64,000 nt of DNA from a phage. Position numbers and translations under genes: made by a program. The DNA is taken from the NCBI GenBank assembly GCA_027263115.1, contig GCA_027263115.1_3656.1; one strand, 5' to 3'. Below the pieces are notes generated by a model. The model did not search any database, was not told the DNA's origin, and was given only the letters and a program-made list of their open reading frames with translations. Each line of letters starts with the position of its first letter. The first letter of the stretch is position 1. Below are positions 30,194 to 50,220 of the stretch, piece by piece.

Positions 30194-30505
30194 TTATTTA
30201 GCAATCACTATGGAATACTTACGATTGTCAGAAGCATCACAGCTCAATGATTGCCAGTCTACCACATACCACGTATCATTGTCAACAATTACTTTATCGC
30301 CTGTTCTGTAGCAGGTGCTGCTTTCAATAATCCGAGACTCGATAAAGAATCTGTGTCGGCGCTCACGTAGCAACGCTAAGTTGATTATATTACCACCACT
30401 GTCCTTGATCCACACATTCTTGGATCCTTTATTTGCCAAAATTGTCTCGCCGTTATAGACAAACAGGCAGTATATTTTATTCAGTCTCTCTTGTATTGTA
30501 GCCAT
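30194..30505 (-). CDS. hypothetical protein
   Basis: 103 aa. Confidence 0.55.
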   Translation of the reverse strand: MATIQERLNKIYCLFVYNGETILANKGSKNVWIKDSGGNIINLALLRERRHRFFIESRIIESSTCYRTGDKVIVDNDTWYVVDWQSLSCDASDNRKYSIVIAK

Positions 30506-30608
30506 ACTATCTCCTTCTCCTTGTCTTGTCCGATAATAATATCTAAAGCTTACCTGTTTGTCAACAACTGTTTTAGATATTTAAGGGTGGAATAACCACC
30601 CTTCTGTA

Positions 30609-31397
30609 TTACTCGGAAACAGGGGTCCAAATATGATTTGCACGATCCTCAATAAGATTGAGTGCAATCTGACGACCCAACCCGGAACGAACAACATCGT
30701 CTGGACTATCAAAGCTGATCATTCCAACCTCAGGGTCTGGATGACGAGTAAAGAAATCCGTCACCCATGCAAGGCCAGATTTACCAGGGATGTCACGTTG
30801 GCTATTATCGCCCATAATTACAAGGGTGGCCTGATCAGAGATCCTTGTGATAATTGACAACATTTCTTCAGGGTTAGTTTGCTGTGCCTCGTCAATCAGG
30901 ACAAAGCATCGCTCATCGAAACTACGACCACGAATGCTTTCAACCTCACAAATCTCGATACGGCTGTTCTGACCGTCTCCCAGCATTGCGGCAAAAGCAC
31001 CTTTGCCAACACGACGACAAATCGTGTCCATCATGCTTCGAAGATAGGGCCACAGTTTCTGCATTGCATTTCCAGGTTTAAATCCTGAAGTCTTTCCTGT
31101 CTGAACGTAAGGACGTGCAACAATGATCTTATCAATCTCGTTCTTACGCAGAAGATCACCTGCATATGCAGATGCCATGAATGTCTTACCGGATCCAAAC
31201 ACACCGTTTACAATGATAATCTTACGTGACCCTAGATAATCAAGATACTTTTGCTGCTTCTTATTCATTGGTCGGAGAGCTGGAGCGGTGTGCTCTCTTT
31301 CGTCAGCAAATTTCTCAGCAGCCTTGCGCAGGCGATCAGATTTGCGAGCCTCTCTAGCTTCATCACGCATGCGTTTTGTTTCTTTAGCTCGACCCAT
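30609..31397 (-). CDS. phoH: PhoH-like ATPase
   Basis: 262 aa; Walker A GVFGSGKTF and PhoH-like overall pattern. Confidence 0.85.
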   Translation of the reverse strand: MGRAKETKRMRDEAREARKSDRLRKAAEKFADEREHTAPALRPMNKKQQKYLDYLGSRKIIIVNGVFGSGKTFMASAYAGDLLRKNEIDKIIVARPYVQTGKTSGFKPGNAMQKLWPYLRSMMDTICRRVGKGAFAAMLGDGQNSRIEICEVESIRGRSFDERCFVLIDEAQQTNPEEMLSIITRISDQATLVIMGDNSQRDIPGKSGLAWVTDFFTRHPDPEVGMISFDSPDDVVRSGLGRQIALNLIEDRANHIWTPVSE

Positions 31398-31435: not shown

Positions 31436-31786
31436 TTACTGCAACAGTTTTTCAATAGCCGCTTCCATGCTGCTTGCAACAGCCTGAACTCGGATATTCA
31501 TCTCTTCTTGGTGGATCAGCTCCTTAAGCTCTTTAATGGTAAATTCTTTAGAGAAACCTTCCACCATAATCTTGTGTAAGGCTTCTTGCGTATCTACTTG
31601 CAAGAACTTTTCCAGTTTGTTGGCAGAGGCTTCTAAATCAGCCCGAATGCGAGGGTCATCTGTGCGATTCAGCATTAGGCGTAAGCCATCAAGATTAGTA
31701 GAAATAGCGTCTGCATGTTGAGTAACTAACCGTGGCAAAATGAGATCTACAAACTTATTAGCCAAATCGATACGTTCTTGTGTCAC
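31436..31786 (-). CDS. hypothetical protein
   Basis: 116 aa, GTG start overlapping stop of upstream micro-ORF. Confidence 0.5.
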   Translation of the reverse strand: MTQERIDLANKFVDLILPRLVTQHADAISTNLDGLRLMLNRTDDPRIRADLEASANKLEKFLQVDTQEALHKIMVEGFSKEFTIKELKELIHQEEMNIRVQAVASSMEAAIEKLLQ

Positions 31787-31896
31787 TGTTGCACCCCCTC
31801 TTCATCCTCATGATGTTTCTTTTCACGCTTGTGTTTTTTCTTGAGCTCAAGCGCAATTTCTTTTTTGTACGCCTTCTTCAAGGCTTTTTTAGCCAT
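31783..31896 (-). CDS. small highly basic protein (37 aa)
   Basis: ATG after GAGGAGGTG; Lys-rich; GTGA coupling with downstream gene. Confidence 0.45.
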   Translation of the reverse strand: MAKKALKKAYKKEIALELKKKHKREKKHHEDEEGVQQ

Positions 31897-31960
31897 TTGG
31901 CACCTCCTCTGCTTTCATTTTACGATAATTATACCTATCTAAACAAAGCTTTGTCAACAG

Positions 31961-32434
31961 CTAGTCTACCTGAACCCAACCGCCTGATACTTTTTTAAAC
32001 ATTCTTTGGTTATCACTGCCTCGGAACGGTTTCTTGGTTGGTAAATCTTTTACATACTTACCGTCAATGATGATATCAGCCAGTTTAAGAACATCACTAG
32101 AGATATGGTCAAATGTGAACCCAGTATATACAAGAATAGTTTTCTTGTCACCAAATTTTTCCTTAATTTTCTCCATCAGGCTAATAATATCTGGCTCATT
32201 ATAGTATGCTAAGGGTTCTCCACCCAGCAGAGAGATACCGCACACAGACGGGTTATCTAAATCTGACAAGATTTTTTGCAAGTCTTCTTCAGTAAACTCT
32301 CTCCCCTTATCTTTTGACCAAAATGCCTGATTAAAGCAACCAGGGCAAGCGTGTGGGCACCCAGATACCCATAAGGCAGTTCTAATACCTGGCCCTTCGG
32401 TGTAAGATATTTCTGTGTATCCGGCAATATTCAT
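31961..32434 (-). CDS. nrdG: anaerobic ribonucleotide reductase activating protein (radical SAM)
   Basis: 157 aa; CPHACPGC radical-SAM cysteine cluster; adjacent to nrdD. Confidence 0.85.
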   Translation of the reverse strand: MNIAGYTEISYTEGPGIRTALWVSGCPHACPGCFNQAFWSKDKGREFTEEDLQKILSDLDNPSVCGISLLGGEPLAYYNEPDIISLMEKIKEKFGDKKTILVYTGFTFDHISSDVLKLADIIIDGKYVKDLPTKKPFRGSDNQRMFKKVSGGWVQVD

Positions 32435-32547
32435 AGATACTCCGCATCACATTTAGGGCAATGCCAAATAAAATCGTCCAGTGCCTTGCACCAACGAAGA
32501 TTGCAACGACAACCACACTTGCAAATTTTATAAATACCTGTAGACAT
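32431..32547 (-). CDS. small cysteine-rich protein (38 aa, 7 Cys)
   Basis: ATG after AGGAGGT; ATGA coupling with nrdG start; sits between nrdD and nrdG. Confidence 0.5.
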   Translation of the reverse strand: MSTGIYKICKCGCRCNLRWCKALDDFIWHCPKCDAEYL

Positions 32548-32610
32548 ACTGTACCTCCTAGCTCACTGTGTGTCAATAATATGCCACATCCTTGTGGCTT
32601 TTGTCAAGTA

Positions 32611-34734
32611 TCAGCAACCACAACTTCCGTAGTGCTTAACCCGTTCTATAACTTCCGCTTGCTTACCTTTATTGTAAGGACGGGAGTTTGGACTAGACAG
32701 GTACCCGGATACACGTCTGATCACACTGATCGTTCCCTCTTCATGGTTTCCACACTCTGGGCATACAAAGCCTTTAGCTGTTGCACTAAACTCACCAGAG
32801 AAACCACACTTGAGACATTTATCCACAGGTTGGTTAATACCAAAATACATAATGTGTTTATACCCGAAGTCAACAAGAGCCTCTAAAGCATCCAGGTTGT
32901 TTTTCAGATTTGGTGTCTCTACGTATCCGATGTTGCCACCAGAGGAGATCATAGCAAAACCTTCTTCATACTTCCACTTATCAAAAGGAGAGCTATTGAT
33001 CCATACTGGCTGATGGAAACTGTTGGTGAGATATTCATGCTCGTGCTTCAACACTTCAGGATATTCACGATCCAGACAGGTTGCAGCTTTATAGCATAGG
33101 CTCTCAGAAGGGGTGCCGTACAAGCTAAATGCTAGTCTACTTTCCTTCTTGTATCGCTCACAAGCATCTCTCATGTGCTGAAGGATTCCAAGAGCTAAAG
33201 CCTTGTCACCCTCTCTGCCCAAAATCTGACAGGTTTCATACACACCAATATACCCAATACTGATGGAAGCGTACCCGTCATAGAAGAGTTTATCAATACT
33301 CTCTTCAGGATCCAGGCGAGCAAGAGCGCCTTCACACCACATGATAGGGTTCTGCCCTGCCTTGGTGCCTTTCAGACGGTTAACCCTTACAAGGTGAGCC
33401 TCGTATGCAAGATCCAGATACTCGTCAAGAACGGCAAAGAAATCAACACCTTCCGTCTTAGCTTTTGCCGCAATCATTGGCAGGTTAAGACTAACAACAC
33501 CCAAGTTGAATCTGCCGAGGTATTTCTCCTCGCCTGTTTCCAAGTCATTGTATTTGCTAAGAAAACTCCGGCAACCCATGCTCGTTACTTTACCATCTGT
33601 CGAGCCTGTCACTTTACGATTTAGTGGAACAGAAACAAAGTCAGGATAAATCCGCTCTGCAGAGCATTCCAGAGCTAATCGTTTCAAATCATAGTTAGGA
33701 TCTCCAGGGTTCATGTTGACACCCTCTTCTAGGAAGAACAGCACTTTAGGGAACACAGGTGTGATACGTTCTTCACCAAGACCCATTTTGTGGACTTTCA
33801 AGTAATTTTTGGTAATCATTCTACCAAAGACCGAGGTATCCAGTCCTAAACTTAATGTGATGAATGGAGTTTGCCCGTTGACAGAAGTTAACGTATTGAT
33901 TTGATAGAGCAAAGTCTGCATGCTGTCAAATACGTCTTTATCTGTCATTTGCATTGCAACAGTCTCAGCATCTGGCAACCAATGTTCCTGGCAAAATTTA
34001 AGGTTCTTCTCATAGGTCGCTTCAGCATACTGTGCCAGATAATGATCAATATGGCTCATAGTCTGACCACCATATTGAGCACTAGCTACTGCACTAGAGA
34101 TTTGGCTAAGGATTGTTGTTGCAACCCCTATTGACTTCGGCTTACTGACATGGGCGTTACCAATGTTGAATCCGTTTTCCAACATATCTGGATAATTTAC
34201 CAAACAACAGTTTGTTAACGGACTGATCAAGTAGTCAAGATCATGCACATGGATGAAGCCTCTATTGTGCTCTTCTGAGACACGGTCTGGCAGGATCTGT
34301 GTTGATGCAAGGTGTTTGCTAAGGATGCCTGCAAGCAGGTCACGATGAGTGTGTACATGATTGGTAGGCTTATTTGCGTTTTCTTTTGTAAATTCATCAC
34401 AAGTGCGATCCAAGAAGCCACTAATATCTGCAAGCAGTTTTCCACCTGCCTCTCTATTATTATCTCTTGTCTGCCTATACTGGATGTATTCTCTGGCTGC
34501 ACATTTTAAACCCATATCCATAAGAGCGTCTTCAACAAGGATATGGATATTTTTTACAGAGATCGTGCACTGGTCGGTTGGTAGAGTGTTAGCAACAACT
34601 TCATTAACCGCGCAGGCGATCCGGTAAGCTTCTTCTTCAGTATGTCCAGACTCAAGTAAGGCGGACTCTGCCGCCTTGATCACCTTAATTCCGTTATAGA
34701 CCTCTTCTCTACCGTCCCGTTTTACAACTTTCAC
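32611..34734 (-). CDS. nrdD: anaerobic ribonucleoside-triphosphate reductase (class III)
   Basis: 707 aa; C-terminal glycyl-radical motif RRVSGYL and zinc-ribbon cysteines. Confidence 0.9.
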   Translation of the reverse strand: MKVVKRDGREEVYNGIKVIKAAESALLESGHTEEEAYRIACAVNEVVANTLPTDQCTISVKNIHILVEDALMDMGLKCAAREYIQYRQTRDNNREAGGKLLADISGFLDRTCDEFTKENANKPTNHVHTHRDLLAGILSKHLASTQILPDRVSEEHNRGFIHVHDLDYLISPLTNCCLVNYPDMLENGFNIGNAHVSKPKSIGVATTILSQISSAVASAQYGGQTMSHIDHYLAQYAEATYEKNLKFCQEHWLPDAETVAMQMTDKDVFDSMQTLLYQINTLTSVNGQTPFITLSLGLDTSVFGRMITKNYLKVHKMGLGEERITPVFPKVLFFLEEGVNMNPGDPNYDLKRLALECSAERIYPDFVSVPLNRKVTGSTDGKVTSMGCRSFLSKYNDLETGEEKYLGRFNLGVVSLNLPMIAAKAKTEGVDFFAVLDEYLDLAYEAHLVRVNRLKGTKAGQNPIMWCEGALARLDPEESIDKLFYDGYASISIGYIGVYETCQILGREGDKALALGILQHMRDACERYKKESRLAFSLYGTPSESLCYKAATCLDREYPEVLKHEHEYLTNSFHQPVWINSSPFDKWKYEEGFAMISSGGNIGYVETPNLKNNLDALEALVDFGYKHIMYFGINQPVDKCLKCGFSGEFSATAKGFVCPECGNHEEGTISVIRRVSGYLSSPNSRPYNKGKQAEVIERVKHYGSCGC

Positions 34735-35009
34735 TTTTTCTCTCCAAAACCATTCTTAACAAAAGAGATGAAATCGTCGGCACCGCCTATATGGACACTT
34801 TCAAGATTACTTTCTAAGAAGATCTGCGGCAACGTTCTGGGTACGATTGGACTGCACTTCTCAATAAGCTCTTCTTTTGTGTAACCCTCGCCAAGTGTCT
34901 TATATACAAAAGGCAGACCCTTACTGACTGCAAATTCTTTTGCTCTTACACAATGTGGGCAGTTATCTTTACCGTAAATAATAAAGAAAAAAGATTTTTC
35001 ACAGCTCAT
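34731..35009 (-). CDS. glutaredoxin/thioredoxin-like redoxin
   Basis: 92 aa; CPHC active site near N-terminus; adjacent to the nrd genes. Confidence 0.75.
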   Translation of the reverse strand: MSCEKSFFFIIYGKDNCPHCVRAKEFAVSKGLPFVYKTLGEGYTKEELIEKCSPIVPRTLPQIFLESNLESVHIGGADDFISFVKNGFGEKK

Positions 35010-35012
35010 GTA

Positions 35013-36101
35013 TTAAAACTCCCAAATTTCTTCTTCAGCGTCGTTAACAGTTGTGTTGACGCGGTAGTCAGTGTTCGACATTTCTTGGTTCGCCGTCTGT
35101 TGCAATGAAGGTTTCATCCACACCTGCATAAACGGTAGAGGGTCCTTTGTTGGCGGCACAAAGTCTTTGTCGATGTCGTAGTAATCATAAATCGGTGAGC
35201 AGTTATAGTCAACCCATTCTTTAAGCAACGGTGAGTTAAGACCTATAATCGCTCTTCCTTCGCTGAAAATATAGTCACTCCAACCGTACTCTTTGGTTCG
35301 TACTTCATCAAGAATCTCTTTTAACTCCCCTTTTATCTCAAGGAAGCTTTTCTCCCATGCGGGATCATTAAGCAGGATATCAATGATGGCAAAATCACCT
35401 TTCGAATGTAGCATTTCGTCAAGCATGATTTTTTGAACAAGCTGCGCCACCTGAACAAAGATACCCTGCTCAGCTACTGCGAAAGTGCATGCAAAACTTG
35501 CAATAAACTCAATACTTTCCAGAGCTAAAAGTGCAAAAAGCGCTCTAAGAATGCATTTCCGCACAACATCTTCTTCAACACTAGAAGGATCCAGTCGGTA
35601 TTTTGCACCAATAACCTCAAGCTCTTGCATGTATTTGACAATAACGCCGGATCTGCTCAGAACGTTTTGGTTTTCCTGAATCTCTTCTATAATCTCACGG
35701 GCATTGGGGAGGCATTGTCTAACAATCTCTGAGTAAGTTAGTGCGTGAAGAACTTCAATCTCTGACTGTTTCATCAATAGAGTGAAAAGCTCACTATTGG
35801 TGATAAATGGTGAAAACAGACAAATGATAGATCTTGCCGCAACGCTATCAGCCTCCCATTGCCACATCAAGGTCTGCACCATCACGTCATAAGTTGACTT
35901 TGAGCATGTTACAAAATCTGAAATAGATTGCGACAAATCCACTTCATCCTCTGCCCAGTCTTGTTCTTTTTGTTTTTTGTATAGTTCAAACAGTTGTGGA
36001 TATTTTTTGTTGATAGAGTCGTACATACCCATTTGCTGTCCTAGAAACAGCGGATAGTCACCAGTTTTATGAGCGGTGTTCTCAGCATTAAATACAGCCA
36101 T
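35013..36101 (-). CDS. nrdB: ribonucleotide reductase class Ia beta subunit
   Basis: 362 aa; ferritin-like di-iron protein immediately downstream of nrdA. Confidence 0.85.
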   Translation of the reverse strand: MAVFNAENTAHKTGDYPLFLGQQMGMYDSINKKYPQLFELYKKQKEQDWAEDEVDLSQSISDFVTCSKSTYDVMVQTLMWQWEADSVAARSIICLFSPFITNSELFTLLMKQSEIEVLHALTYSEIVRQCLPNAREIIEEIQENQNVLSRSGVIVKYMQELEVIGAKYRLDPSSVEEDVVRKCILRALFALLALESIEFIASFACTFAVAEQGIFVQVAQLVQKIMLDEMLHSKGDFAIIDILLNDPAWEKSFLEIKGELKEILDEVRTKEYGWSDYIFSEGRAIIGLNSPLLKEWVDYNCSPIYDYYDIDKDFVPPTKDPLPFMQVWMKPSLQQTANQEMSNTDYRVNTTVNDAEEEIWEF

Positions 36102-36140: not shown

Positions 36141-38456
36141 TTATAGTGCACAACTTTCGCAATACTGATCTTCAACTGAACTATCTGCATTCAAAGGATA
36201 GTTCTTTCTGGTTTCATCTTCAGCCTGTTTCTTGGCATGAAGTTCCTCTGCCAAGGAGTCGCCAGCACCAACCCTAGAGTTTAAATAATACCATGTCTTC
36301 ATTCCGAATTTAGTGGCACGGATAAGGTACCCTAGCTGCTCCTTCATTGAAATTTTACCATCTTTCAACTTGGTGTAGTCTATGTACAAATCCGCGCTGA
36401 TTGCCTGACCTGTGAATTTTTGAATCACAGCATACATATCGATCATGTCGTTAGTATCAACGTCCCAAGCCGAAGTGTAATACTCTTTCAACTCATCATA
36501 GTCAGGAACGATAAACAGCACCTGCCCTTGTGGCGACTTTTTAAAGATAATGTGCTCACGGACAGGATAGACCCCGTTAGTGGTGTTTGTTGCCAGCGAA
36601 GAGCTTTCATTAGGCATATATGCTTCAAGAACGCTATTACGTAGCCCACCATTTTCAATGATTTCTTTACGTAACCCTTCCCAATCCTGTTTAAGAGAAG
36701 GATCTTTCACCACGCTATCGACCTCTTTGTTATAGGTGTCGATTGGTAACCAACCTTCTGGATATTTTGTTTTATGCATCCACTCGCAGACACCACGCTC
36801 TTTTGCCAACCGTAAACTTGCCTTATGCAAGCTGTAGCTGTGAAGTTCTGCAAGATCGTGAACGAGCTGTTTACTTTCAGGAGATCCGTAAGTAACCTTG
36901 TGGCTGGCAATAAAATGTGCAACATTGGTAAGGCCAACCCCGATGGATCTGCGTTTTTTAACTGTGCTTTCCATATTTTCATACGGATATGTCATGATTT
37001 CCATAACATTGTCAATCATAAGCACCGTATAGTATGCAACATCCTCATACTCCTCTGGAGTAACCCTCCCAGCTACAAGAGATGACAGGAAGCACAATGC
37101 AACCTCTCCATCATCAGCATCGTACTTGAAGATATTACGCATATCTGAATAGCCTTTTGTCGGGAGGGCTATTTCTGCACACAGGTTACTTGAATAGATC
37201 ACATCTTTAAAAGGTGTATGTCTATTCATCTCATCTGTCCAGTATACATACAGCCTTCCCACCTCAGTACGCTGCGTGATCAGTTCAACAGCAAGATCTC
37301 TGGCCCGGATCCATGTTTTAGGAATACTGTCATCTTTAGCAATACGATCAACCTCTGCATCAAACTCCTCCATAGACATGGTGAAGATACCCTCATGCAG
37401 TTGAGGCGCGTGCTTATAAGAAACAAGCATCCAATCCAAATTCTTAGCCACACGGTTGATAAACGACCTATTAATACCGATGGAGTAGTCCATGGTGTTG
37501 ATTCTTTTTGAAGCAACAGTCATAGGGTTTCTCAAACGGATTAGCTCATCAATCTGCGGGTCTAGTGCAAGAAATGATACTGTTGCAGAACCGCCACGTG
37601 ATTGTTGTCTGTTCTCCTTAACCCCAGCATCAATACCTCGATAATATGGAATCTTACCCATGTGTTTAATAGTGTTACCACGAACACCATCGCCTGCAGA
37701 TCTTGATGATAAATAGTAGCCGATACCTGCTTGGTTAACCGTCATTGTGTACGCAACTTCACGTGCCACACCAATAGATTTTGCTGTATCGTCAGCTTTT
37801 ATTACACAACAAGATGCATACCCTGTCTTACCTGTGCGCAGCCCGTTTAAGTACGGTGTCGGGGCATTGATCTTTAAGTCGGACAGATAAGTGTATAATT
37901 TTACAACATCGTTGATACGACGTTCTTTCGGCATATTCTTCATGACAGCCATTGCTATCCCCATAAACATCATCTGGGGAGATTCAAACAAGGTGTCTTT
38001 AAGAGTATCCTTGATCCCGTATTTGTCGCGAAACTGTTTAAGGACTGCATAGCCATAACCGAGATCTTTACTGTGGTCAATAACAGCGTCTAAAGTGTTT
38101 AGCTCGGTAAAGCTATAGCCCATATCCTCCCAATACCCTTTCTCAACCATGGTATTGTAAAATGATGGTAAGGAAGGGATCTTTGTAAACCCTCCAAAAG
38201 CCTCTTTATAAATCTGACCAATAAGAACACGACCAGCCATACGGGAATGTGCTTCGTCTTTACGGCTAACACAGGAGTCTATGATAGCTTGGTTAACTTC
38301 TTTGGTTGTACATCCATCATACAGTCGTTTGTATGCATCCAGTGCAATATGTGACCAATTGCCGTTACCGTCGTCACCGAAAATAGCTGCCTTATTTAAA
38401 CGTTCTGGATCGAATGCTACCTCACATCCGTTGCTTTTAATTACCTTGGTGATCAA
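36141..38456 (-). CDS. nrdA: ribonucleotide reductase class Ia alpha subunit
   Basis: 771 aa; N-terminal ATP-cone-like region, active-site NLCAEI, C-terminal CESC; TTG start after GGAGGAAG. Confidence 0.9.
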   Translation of the reverse strand: MITKVIKSNGCEVAFDPERLNKAAIFGDDGNGNWSHIALDAYKRLYDGCTTKEVNQAIIDSCVSRKDEAHSRMAGRVLIGQIYKEAFGGFTKIPSLPSFYNTMVEKGYWEDMGYSFTELNTLDAVIDHSKDLGYGYAVLKQFRDKYGIKDTLKDTLFESPQMMFMGIAMAVMKNMPKERRINDVVKLYTYLSDLKINAPTPYLNGLRTGKTGYASCCVIKADDTAKSIGVAREVAYTMTVNQAGIGYYLSSRSAGDGVRGNTIKHMGKIPYYRGIDAGVKENRQQSRGGSATVSFLALDPQIDELIRLRNPMTVASKRINTMDYSIGINRSFINRVAKNLDWMLVSYKHAPQLHEGIFTMSMEEFDAEVDRIAKDDSIPKTWIRARDLAVELITQRTEVGRLYVYWTDEMNRHTPFKDVIYSSNLCAEIALPTKGYSDMRNIFKYDADDGEVALCFLSSLVAGRVTPEEYEDVAYYTVLMIDNVMEIMTYPYENMESTVKKRRSIGVGLTNVAHFIASHKVTYGSPESKQLVHDLAELHSYSLHKASLRLAKERGVCEWMHKTKYPEGWLPIDTYNKEVDSVVKDPSLKQDWEGLRKEIIENGGLRNSVLEAYMPNESSSLATNTTNGVYPVREHIIFKKSPQGQVLFIVPDYDELKEYYTSAWDVDTNDMIDMYAVIQKFTGQAISADLYIDYTKLKDGKISMKEQLGYLIRATKFGMKTWYYLNSRVGAGDSLAEELHAKKQAEDETRKNYPLNADSSVEDQYCESCAL

Positions 38457-48936: not shown

Positions 48937-50220
48937 TCATTCCAGAACCTCCCAAGTGTCTGGGTTAACATTTCGGACGCAGATACCGACAGGGAATTGG
49001 TAGTTGTTGTCTTCTGTCCTTGCTTGATATTTGAAGGTGACAAACTTGCCGATCATTTCCTGCATCCTGTCATAGCTACGCTCCTCGTGCGTGCCTTTCA
49101 TCTTCATTTTAACAACAACACCTTCCTTGTCAACACAGATAAGAACACCTTCATCATTCTTATCTTTCTCAACGTCAATAACTTTCACCTCTGCGTCGTT
49201 GAACTTTTTCCATTTCAATGCTTCAGATGTTCGCTGACCATACTCATATTTACCACAGAAGTTACGCATAATGGTACCTTCATATCCCTCAGACATAAAT
49301 ATACCAACAGACTCTTCGCACCGATCAACTGTGTATGCAATCTCTGCATCAACAACCTTAATATGATCAAGCATCAAAGAAGCAATAGCACCATTTGCCT
49401 CCATAAGATCCTTACAGCGTCCAGACTCTGTTTCAGGATCCCACCACACCTTATCGCTAGGAATATCGAAAATATGATACTCTAAGTCGTAGCTGCAGTA
49501 CCCTCCGTAACGCAAATCATCACGAACAGGCTCAACATCAACAGGAATGTCCATCTTGTTGAAGTTTTTGTATGTTGCTAAACCTGCTTTAATCGCAGCC
49601 TGACGGCGTTTTTTATCTGCCTTGTAGTCTTTATCGATCTCGGCCTGAATTTCTTCCTGTGTGCGCCACCGTTTAGCAAGAGACACTATTTTCTGCAGAG
49701 GCAGACCATGAATATAGAGCTCTCCGTCGAGCTGTTTAATCCCGGTGGTTAGGTGGAAAGAGCGAAGTTGCTCCAGAAGCTTCCCTTGAATAGGGTAGGA
49801 CTTATTACCACGGGAAATAAATTTAGGCTCACCATTCTGGAAAACAACAAGTAGACGAAGGCCATCTAACTTACGCAAGATCCAGCAAGGTAATTTAAGT
49901 GCCTTGCCACGCTTCAGGTAGTCATGCACCAACATGGGTAAAAGATCAACACCTTGCTCACAATCTTCCATACTCTCCACGTACCCGAGTCGGACCTGTT
50001 TTTCCCACTTACTGATCGCTTCCAGCTCGGCCTGTTGCTCAGCTGTAGTTTCATTAGCGCGACCCACGTTCTTAGGTGTGCAGATCGTCTCTTTGTATTG
50101 CAGTTTACCATCAAGCTTGCCAAACTCTACGATAACCTTATCACCATCCGTGAATACTTTCCACTGTTGGTGGCTGCCATCTTTGTTCAGTGCGTACAGT
50201 GTTGTTTTGATCTGATGCAT
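48937..50220 (-). CDS. ATP-dependent DNA ligase
   Basis: 427 aa; motif I KLDGLR, motif IV EGYEGTIMR, motif V LKWKK. Confidence 0.7.
   Translation of the reverse strand: MHQIKTTLYALNKDGSHQQWKVFTDGDKVIVEFGKLDGKLQYKETICTPKNVGRANETTAEQQAELEAISKWEKQVRLGYVESMEDCEQGVDLLPMLVHDYLKRGKALKLPCWILRKLDGLRLLVVFQNGEPKFISRGNKSYPIQGKLLEQLRSFHLTTGIKQLDGELYIHGLPLQKIVSLAKRWRTQEEIQAEIDKDYKADKKRRQAAIKAGLATYKNFNKMDIPVDVEPVRDDLRYGGYCSYDLEYHIFDIPSDKVWWDPETESGRCKDLMEANGAIASLMLDHIKVVDAEIAYTVDRCEESVGIFMSEGYEGTIMRNFCGKYEYGQRTSEALKWKKFNDAEVKVIDVEKDKNDEGVLICVDKEGVVVKMKMKGTHEERSYDRMQEMIGKFVTFKYQARTEDNNYQFPVGICVRNVNPDTWEVLE

Follow-up and report, generated by a model that had tools for sequence, protein, structure and literature searches.

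A conserved seven-cysteine micro-gene beside nrdG and a gp113-type peptide in an rV5-like bacteriophage

The DNA analysed here, referred to as the window, is a stretch of 64,000 nucleotides (nt) from a phage (GenBank assembly GCA_027263115.1, contig GCA_027263115.1_3656.1). Its source is an rV5-like (Vequintavirus) E. coli phage: the region studied matches 121 phage records at 92-99.9% identity, and almost all of these are rV5-like Vequintavirus. Two very small open reading frames (ORFs) stand next to the anaerobic ribonucleotide reductase (RNR) genes: one of 38 amino acids (aa) with seven cysteines between nrdD and nrdG, hereafter the Cys ORF, and a lysine-rich one of 37 aa beyond nrdG, the Lys-rich ORF. 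The reading that we favour, at slightly better than even chances, is that the Cys ORF encodes an autonomous small metal-binding orphan protein and no RNR subunit, and that the Lys-rich ORF is gp113, a partner of gp114. Some GenBank records and the PHROGs label the 38-aa ORF 'ribonucleotide reductase', a tempting call by adjacency that the present analysis corrects. The product is a strongly constrained, metal-type orphan micro-protein whose sequence is better conserved than that of the adjoining enzyme. It also appears to represent an unusually clean transfer of a micro-gene between myoviruses and podoviruses, exactly ORF-sized and into a slot that other micro-ORFs also use. In our opinion, what is most interesting about the locus is its seven-Cys motif and this transfer to the slot of a start codon.

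Both micro-ORFs are already annotated in several GenBank records as hypothetical proteins; a literature search found no study of either, and neither matched a family in Pfam and NCBIfam searches. A preliminary description of the window, made from the letters alone, had reported the 38-aa, seven-Cys ORF at 32431..32547 with its Shine-Dalgarno (SD) sequence AGGAGGT and ATGA overlap with nrdG, and the 37-aa Lys-rich ORF at 31783..31896 with its SD and its overlap with the GTG start of the next gene. All these points were confirmed from the sequence. The same description called the two ORFs translationally coupled: both are genuine small genes and their stop-start anatomy fits coupling, which itself we infer.

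Conservation and predicted fold of the seven-cysteine protein

The Cys ORF translates as MSTGIYKICKCGCRCNLRWCKALDDFIWHCPKCDAEYL, with seven Cys in 38 aa, and is found intact by tblastn in about 120 phage records. Pairwise ratios of nonsynonymous to synonymous substitution (dN/dS, Nei-Gojobori) are 0.05-0.2, and against the metagenomic relatives on contigs L006 and L007 the synonymous sites are saturated and the core of the protein is still kept. Among the 13 members of the family, 23 columns and all seven Cys are invariant, as are Trp, Asp and Pro positions, giving the motif C-K-x(0,1)-C-G-C-x-C-[NK]-L-R-W-C-x-x-L-D-D-x-I-W-[HY]-C-P-x-C-x-x-E-Y-L. Identity between the window and L007 is 79% for the Cys protein, compared with 52% for the adjoining NrdG and 51% for PhoH. 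The substitution pattern thus indicates that the Cys ORF is a genuine gene under purifying selection. It matches phrog_20137 over positions 1-38 of 38 (E=1.8e-31). A profile search of 5.8 billion proteins recovered only 14 clusters, all evident members of the family with 36-54 aa, and HMMER, run exhaustively on 1.84 billion representatives, revealed nothing real beyond it; one match of that scan, P0021, is a spurious tandem-repeat translation. Read-through from nrdD into the Cys ORF was considered and rejected: the two share a frame, but two in-frame TGA codons lie between them.

Two rare disrupted variants were observed. In P0014 (62 aa, from a 1473-bp ENA contig) residues 1-20 of the Cys ORF are fused to the C-terminal part of a 78-aa ORF of the kind found in phage LL12, which looks like a deletion. 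In P0004 (phage Alma, 61 aa) a changed and extended C-terminus replaces EYL.

The AlphaFold2 (AF2) model of the Cys peptide, built from the family alignment, is a three-stranded sheet (strands 16-20, 25-30 and 35-37) with a mean confidence (pLDDT) of 70.8. Two knuckles, C9-x-C11-G (CxxCG in the variants of 41-54 aa) and C30-P-x-C33, are invariant in the 13 sequences. In a Foldseek comparison with the PDB the best matches are zinc ribbons, including Rpb9, ZifS (8yoz) and the N-terminus of the Nudix protein 3cng, with TMq 0.70-0.75 and a root-mean-square deviation (rmsd) of 1.1-1.4 A; their E-values (at least 0.3) are non-significant, as expected for 38 residues. The best structural matches are the Rpb9/TFIIS-type ribbons (TMq 0.70-0.75, rmsd ~1.2 A over 32-34 residues), which are domains of larger proteins, are only 18-20% identical with non-significant E, and whose similarity in fold implies no shared function. 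In BFVD the model found its own relatives, together with numerous small, uncharacterised zinc fingers of viral origin. The PDB sequence search gave only weak, knuckle-level matches, to a CPxCG zinc-finger micro-protein (E=0.12) and to the eL43 motif IWHCPKC.

Taken together, the Cys peptide looks like a metal (zinc) ribbon in sequence and predicted fold, with CxC/CxxC-G and CPxC knuckles on a three-stranded sheet. Metal binding is therefore plausible: the two knuckles would form one Cys4 site, with three further invariant Cys besides. The metal-binding property put forward in the preliminary description accordingly keeps its support from the zinc-ribbon-like sequence and model, and binding as such is to be read as a prediction. 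The closest known parallels are the CPxCG zinc-finger micro-proteins (PDB 8q5b; ZifS of T. thermophilus, 8yoz; Brz of Halobacterium, PMC2253796), which are also 35-60 aa long, carry CxxCG and CPxC knuckles on a three-stranded ribbon and are often encoded directly 5' of another gene. The Cys protein differs from them in having no significant sequence homology to any, in being a phage-encoded orphan, in its seven rather than four invariant Cys, and in a first knuckle that is CxC in most members. It is best described as an orphan family, so far annotated as hypothetical, that probably belongs to the broad class of small zinc-ribbon micro-proteins.

Genomic contexts and transfer of the Cys ORF

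The genes and signals surrounding the two micro-ORFs, all on the minus strand, are given below in the direction of transcription.

36141..38456, minus: nrdA
35013..36101, minus: nrdB
34731..35009, minus: glutaredoxin gene
32611..34734, minus: nrdD, anaerobic ribonucleotide reductase, 707 aa, uninterrupted in the window
32548..32607, minus: spacer between nrdD and the Cys ORF, with two TTGACA promoter-like sites (10/12 matches each)
32583..32598, minus: 6-bp GC-rich hairpin in that spacer, weak
32553..32559, minus: SD AGGAGGT, 5 nt 5' of the ATG of the Cys ORF, read from the sequence
32431..32547, minus: Cys ORF, 38 aa, seven Cys, phrog_20137, predicted zinc ribbon
32431..32434, minus: ATGA junction, in which the TGA stop of the Cys ORF (32433..32431) overlaps the ATG of nrdG (32434..32432)
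31961..32434, minus: nrdG, anaerobic RNR activase, radical SAM (S-adenosylmethionine) protein, 157 aa, Fer4_12 E=9e-43
31928..31957, minus: promoter-like site with the sigma-70 consensus, TTGACA-18-TATAAT (12/12 matches), 5' of the Lys-rich ORF
31902..31909, minus: SD GAGGAGGT, 5 nt 5' of the ATG of the Lys-rich ORF, read from the sequence
31783..31896, minus: Lys-rich ORF, 37 aa, homologue of rV5 gp113 and PVP-SE1 gp144, phrog_7670
31783..31786, minus: GTGA junction, in which the TGA stop of the Lys-rich ORF overlaps the GTG start of the gp114-like ORF
31436..31786, minus: gp114-like ORF, 116 aa, GTG start, all-helical model, phrog_7650
30609..31397, minus: phoH, PhoH-like ATPase, last gene of the unit opened by the Lys-rich ORF

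Since promoter-like sites precede both micro-ORFs, each is the first cistron after such a site. Rfam gave no match in the micro-ORF region, and the RNA folding energy, spacer hairpin included, is not unusual. The Cys ORF would be expressed from its own strong SD together with genes of DNA and nucleotide metabolism.

The preliminary description had proposed that the Cys peptide is an accessory factor of the anaerobic reductase, and had named absence of the ORF from otherwise syntenic phage nrdDG loci as the observation that would speak against it. Such loci exist: in PVP-SE1 (Seunavirus, same subfamily) and in ESCO5 (Phapecoctavirus) nrdD directly overlaps nrdG by ATGA, and the Cys ORF is absent. 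In Vequintaviruses of the LL12/rV5 type the Cys ORF is uncoupled; it ends in TAA and is followed by a 34-aa ORF and then by a 78-aa ORF (phrog_3249), which overlaps a divergent nrdG allele 52% identical to that of the window. In O157 typing phage 14 and in L006, genes resembling homing endonucleases interrupt the stretch from nrdD to the Cys ORF. Outside the rV5-like phages, the SP6-like podovirus ACG-C91 and three more Vectrevirus contigs (L008-L010) carry a homologue. It is about 80% identical in amino acids, with many synonymous differences, and lies between a nucleotide kinase and the DNA ligase, again with an ATGA overlap with the downstream start. NrdD and NrdG homologues were sought in the ACG-C91 genome and none were found. 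A search of Pfam and NCBIfam with E up to 1 related the Cys ORF to no RNR component or domain. The label 'ribonucleotide reductase' carried by phrog_20137 appears to have been copied from the neighbouring gene, like 'DNA ligase' for phrog_13972, the match of a peptide from phage K1E. The pattern expected of a dedicated NrdDG accessory, which is to co-occur with nrdD-nrdG and to be absent without them, was thus not found. Because of its absence from syntenic nrdDG loci, its uncoupling and its presence in RNR-less podoviruses, an NrdG-specific accessory role is not supported, and the distribution gives no support to the Cys ORF as an RNR component or dedicated NrdDG helper.

An alignment of the Vectrevirus kinase-ligase junction revealed conserved flanks around a slot with four states:

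Empty: LL11, as in SP6
Cys ORF: ACG-C91 and L008
Unrelated 38-aa CxxC..CxxC ORF: K1E (L011 699-815) and 10 other records
57-aa ORF, phrog_15259: Mt1B1_P10 (L012 699-872)

The 57-aa ORF lacks annotation in the Mt1B1_P10 record. Every insert extends from the ATG that serves the ligase in the empty site to ATGAATAT, which is the beginning of both nrdG and the DNA ligase gene. Likewise, homology between the window and ACG-C91 begins at the ATG of the Cys ORF and stops 8 nt into the downstream gene, and the SD regions are unrelated. These boundaries suggest that the Cys ORF passed from one phage family to another, unrelated one in a piece of precisely ORF size, ATG ... ATGAATAT. The probable route for the bare ORF is microhomology at the two start codons. 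The Cys ORF would thus occupy the start-codon slot of an essential gene, nrdG in rV5-like and DNA ligase in SP6-like phages, reusing the resident SD on insertion and keeping the downstream gene translationally coupled. As its stop overlaps the downstream start, insertion leaves translation of that gene unbroken. In the rV5-like phages it sits at the place of the ATGA by which nrdD and nrdG are linked in related genera, and would have taken that junction over. A loose analogue is provided by the PeSL cassettes of T4-type phages (Arbiol et al. 2010, PMC2839356), in which small orphan ORFs are shuffled between phages together with a sigma-70-like promoter and a stem-loop; in the window, promoter-like sites and a short hairpin stand in the spacer upstream of the Cys ORF. 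Promoter and stem-loop do not accompany the ORF into Vectrevirus, however, where the bare ORF alone is shared, and the hairpin in the window is weak.

Possible roles of the Cys peptide

Several observations weigh against the Cys ORF as an autonomous metal-binding protein. It stayed beside nrdG in two deeply diverged rV5-like lineages, and a functional tie would give the same linkage. E. coli, the host, encodes NrdDG itself, and a target related to RNR is in principle still available to the peptide in podoviruses that lack RNR genes. Little can be read from the ATGA overlap taken alone, such junctions being frequent where phage genes are densely packed (rV5 paper, PMC3606486). As for the fold, a plain Cys4 ribbon does not account for the three extra invariant Cys (C13, C15 and C20), the AF2 confidence is moderate only, and the Foldseek E-values of so short a query are not significant. 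The first two of these points favour a metal-binding accessory of the anaerobic RNR, for instance one that delivers or protects metal for the [4Fe-4S] cluster of NrdG or the zinc site of NrdD. In most Vequintavirus records (86 of the 121 cover at least 80% of the query region) the Cys ORF lies directly 5' of nrdG and overlaps it, the diverged L006/L007 lineage has the same arrangement, seven Cys are invariant, and host NrdDG is a possible target even for Vectrevirus phages. We nevertheless regard this role as unlikely, given the nrdD-nrdG pairs of PVP-SE1 and ESCO5 that do without the ORF, the two ORFs that separate it from nrdG in LL12/rV5, its position before DNA ligase in phages without RNR genes, and the lack of any Pfam or NCBIfam relation to RNR components besides a PHROG label that apparently spread from the neighbour. 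A reading still harder to credit, by a wide measure, makes the peptide a ribosomally synthesized and post-translationally modified peptide (RiPP) precursor of the SCIFF/ranthipeptide kind, modified by the adjoining radical SAM enzyme, or else a Cys-codon or arrest-type leader. SCIFF/ranthipeptide precursors are indeed short Cys-rich peptides adjoining a radical SAM gene, and the Cys ORF is immediately 5' of one. Here, in contrast, the neighbour is a canonical RNR activase: NrdG has 157 aa with Fer4_12 and Radical_SAM only and no room for a SPASM or RRE domain. Moreover, a zinc-ribbon fold is predicted for the peptide, conservation extends over its whole sequence and not its Cys codons alone, and the peptide occurs in Vectrevirus without any radical SAM gene, the linkage being broken in LL12 too.

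Another possibility is that both micro-ORFs are functionless as peptides and act as translational couplers or leaders that load ribosomes onto nrdG and gp114. The anatomy is suggestive, with a perfect AGGAGGT SD on each micro-ORF, weaker downstream SDs placed inside the micro-ORF (GGAG; a GTG start for gp114) and 4-nt stop-start overlaps. Such a role is nonetheless very improbable in view of the strong purifying selection on amino acids in the Cys ORF, with its invariant Cys, Trp, Asp and Pro, and its persistence where uncoupled, as in LL12; the gp113 homologue of PVP-SE1 lies 8 nt away from gp145, and no RNA structure masks the downstream starts (z-scores -0.3 and +0.2). Small phage proteins of this kind often prove to be host-takeover or anti-defence factors. 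That the Cys peptide is such an effector, and the slots before nrdG and ligase exchange points for micro-effectors, is a possibility that we consider doubtful, if a little less so than the reductase accessory. It would fit an orphan that is patchily distributed and horizontally transferred, and a Vectrevirus slot that holds alternative unrelated micro-ORFs or none. The K1E occupant of that slot gives weak matches to the Lar family of restriction-alleviation proteins (TIGR03655, E=3.7e-4) and to ECs_2282 (NF047912), which are small phage or prophage zinc-ribbon proteins, with both matches below the curated cut-offs. The Lar match belongs to a different protein, however, and reaches 20.7 bits against a cut-off of 39.6; hhalign could not relate the K1E ORF to the Cys family, and the Cys ORF in its 38-aa and 54-aa forms matches no anti-defence, Lar or ECs_2282 model. 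We also put forward, quite tentatively, a joint reading in which the Cys protein is one of several interchangeable micro-effectors inserted exactly at the start codons of essential DNA-metabolism genes. In this joint reading the inserts reuse the resident SD and ATG, end in ATGA, ride on downstream translation and move between families by start-codon microhomology, and the seven-Cys motif forms a new binuclear or intermolecular metal site. For the autonomous metal-binding protein that we favour, an orphan accessory of E. coli phages, the target would be a host or phage macromolecule bound via the ribbon.

The gp113-gp114 unit and the mosaic surroundings

The Lys-rich ORF contains 12 Lys and one Arg in its 37 residues. 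It matches phrog_7670 (E=2e-20), as does PVP-SE1 gp144 (E=1.4e-28), and its homologues were located by synteny. In PVP-SE1, the annotation notes similarity to rV5 gp113 for gene 144 (46 aa) and to gp114 for gene 145; rV5 gp113/gp114 and PVP-SE1 gp144/gp145 are direct homologues of the Lys-rich ORF and its partner, in the same order 5' of phoH; only the junction differs. The homologues in L006 and L007 have 41-44 aa (gp113-like) and 133 aa (gp114-like). An N-terminal part of ~20 residues, M[AS]KKxL[KR]KAYxKE[IL]ALEL, is kept in three diverged lineages, and the rest is basic, then acidic. Identity to the distant relatives is 52-54% for the Lys-rich ORF, compared with 28-35% for gp114. A gp114 homologue follows the Lys-rich ORF in the window, in typing phage 14 (L005) and in L006, L007 and L015, with a junction that is GTGA in the window, ATGA in L007, a 14-nt overlap in L006 and an 8-nt gap in PVP-SE1. 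From homology and synteny, the Lys-rich ORF is rV5 gp113, conserved with the helical gp114 across Vequintavirinae. The AF2 model of gp114 has four helices (pLDDT 83). Its fold search was uninformative (best match DUF2059, TM 0.54, E at least 0.5), and a word-based homologue search and an IMG/VR scan of gp114 gave close relatives only. A PDB sequence match of the Lys-rich family was discarded as a chance alignment of 15 residues.

The preliminary description had placed the Lys-rich ORF in the nrd cluster; its position after a consensus promoter-like site indicates instead that it lies outside that cluster, at the head of a unit of its own, promoter-driven, with gp114 and phoH. As proposed here, gp113 would be a basic amphipathic-helix peptide, encoded by the leading cistron of a unit that sigma-70 drives and that includes gp114 (and phoH), and most likely acts together with gp114.

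The genes next to the Cys ORF are mosaic in the relatives of the window. The nrdD gene is split by intron and homing-endonuclease insertions: in EmilHeitz (L001) it is a two-piece join with a putative homing endonuclease, and in L006 (1-3971) and L007 (687-3936) the NRDD fragments are separated by a 264-aa ORF and HNH/NUMOD4 genes. The insertion between nrdD and the Cys ORF of typing phage 14 (L005 779-1939) is a 386-aa ORF that matches endonuclease PHROGs (phrog_681, E=1e-80; phrog_559, HNH). Apparently the same insertion occurs in inoa, nomine and magaca; several records call it 'putative minor capsid protein', perhaps in error. The C-terminus of NrdD (window 32611-32630) reads ...VKHYGSCGC, with a variant SCSC in typing phage 14 and LL12. 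The NrdD proteins of PVP-SE1 (..VKHV) and L007 (..VKHFH) end without such a short Cys-bearing tail. In the window it adjoins the spacer with the promoter-like sites of the Cys ORF.

Within the genus Vequintavirus there are two nrdG alleles, represented by LL12 (L002 2054-2527) and by the window (31961-32434). They have a near-identical C-terminal tail, with one substitution in the last 21 residues, and a shared tail on alleles that are otherwise so divergent implies mosaicism in nrdG as well. The 78-aa ORF and the 34-aa ORF accompany the LL12 allele.

Contigs L006 and L007 (Logan SRR31127853 and DRR596585) have only about 75% nucleotide identity to Vequintavirus in the nrdD-nrdG region, and no closer record was found in the phage collection. 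They carry an extra 377-aa ORF and a 104-aa ORF between nrdG and the gp113 homologue, and may represent an undescribed rV5-related lineage. About 18 'Campylobacter phage' records (MG0656xx) are 97-99.9% identical in this region to rV5-like E. coli phages, which suggests that they are mislabelled or contaminating.

Elsewhere in the window, a near-consensus sigma-70 site (11/12 matches; 30536-30564, minus strand) precedes a 103-aa ORF (30194-30505, minus; phrog_5456) located between phoH and a gene for a ClpP-like protease. A scripted scan proposed a third promoter-proximal micro-ORF at 48937..49056, which was rejected as merely the C-terminus of a 427-aa ORF (48937-50220, minus). That larger ORF has a KxDG motif (RKLDG) and looks like an ATP-dependent DNA ligase.

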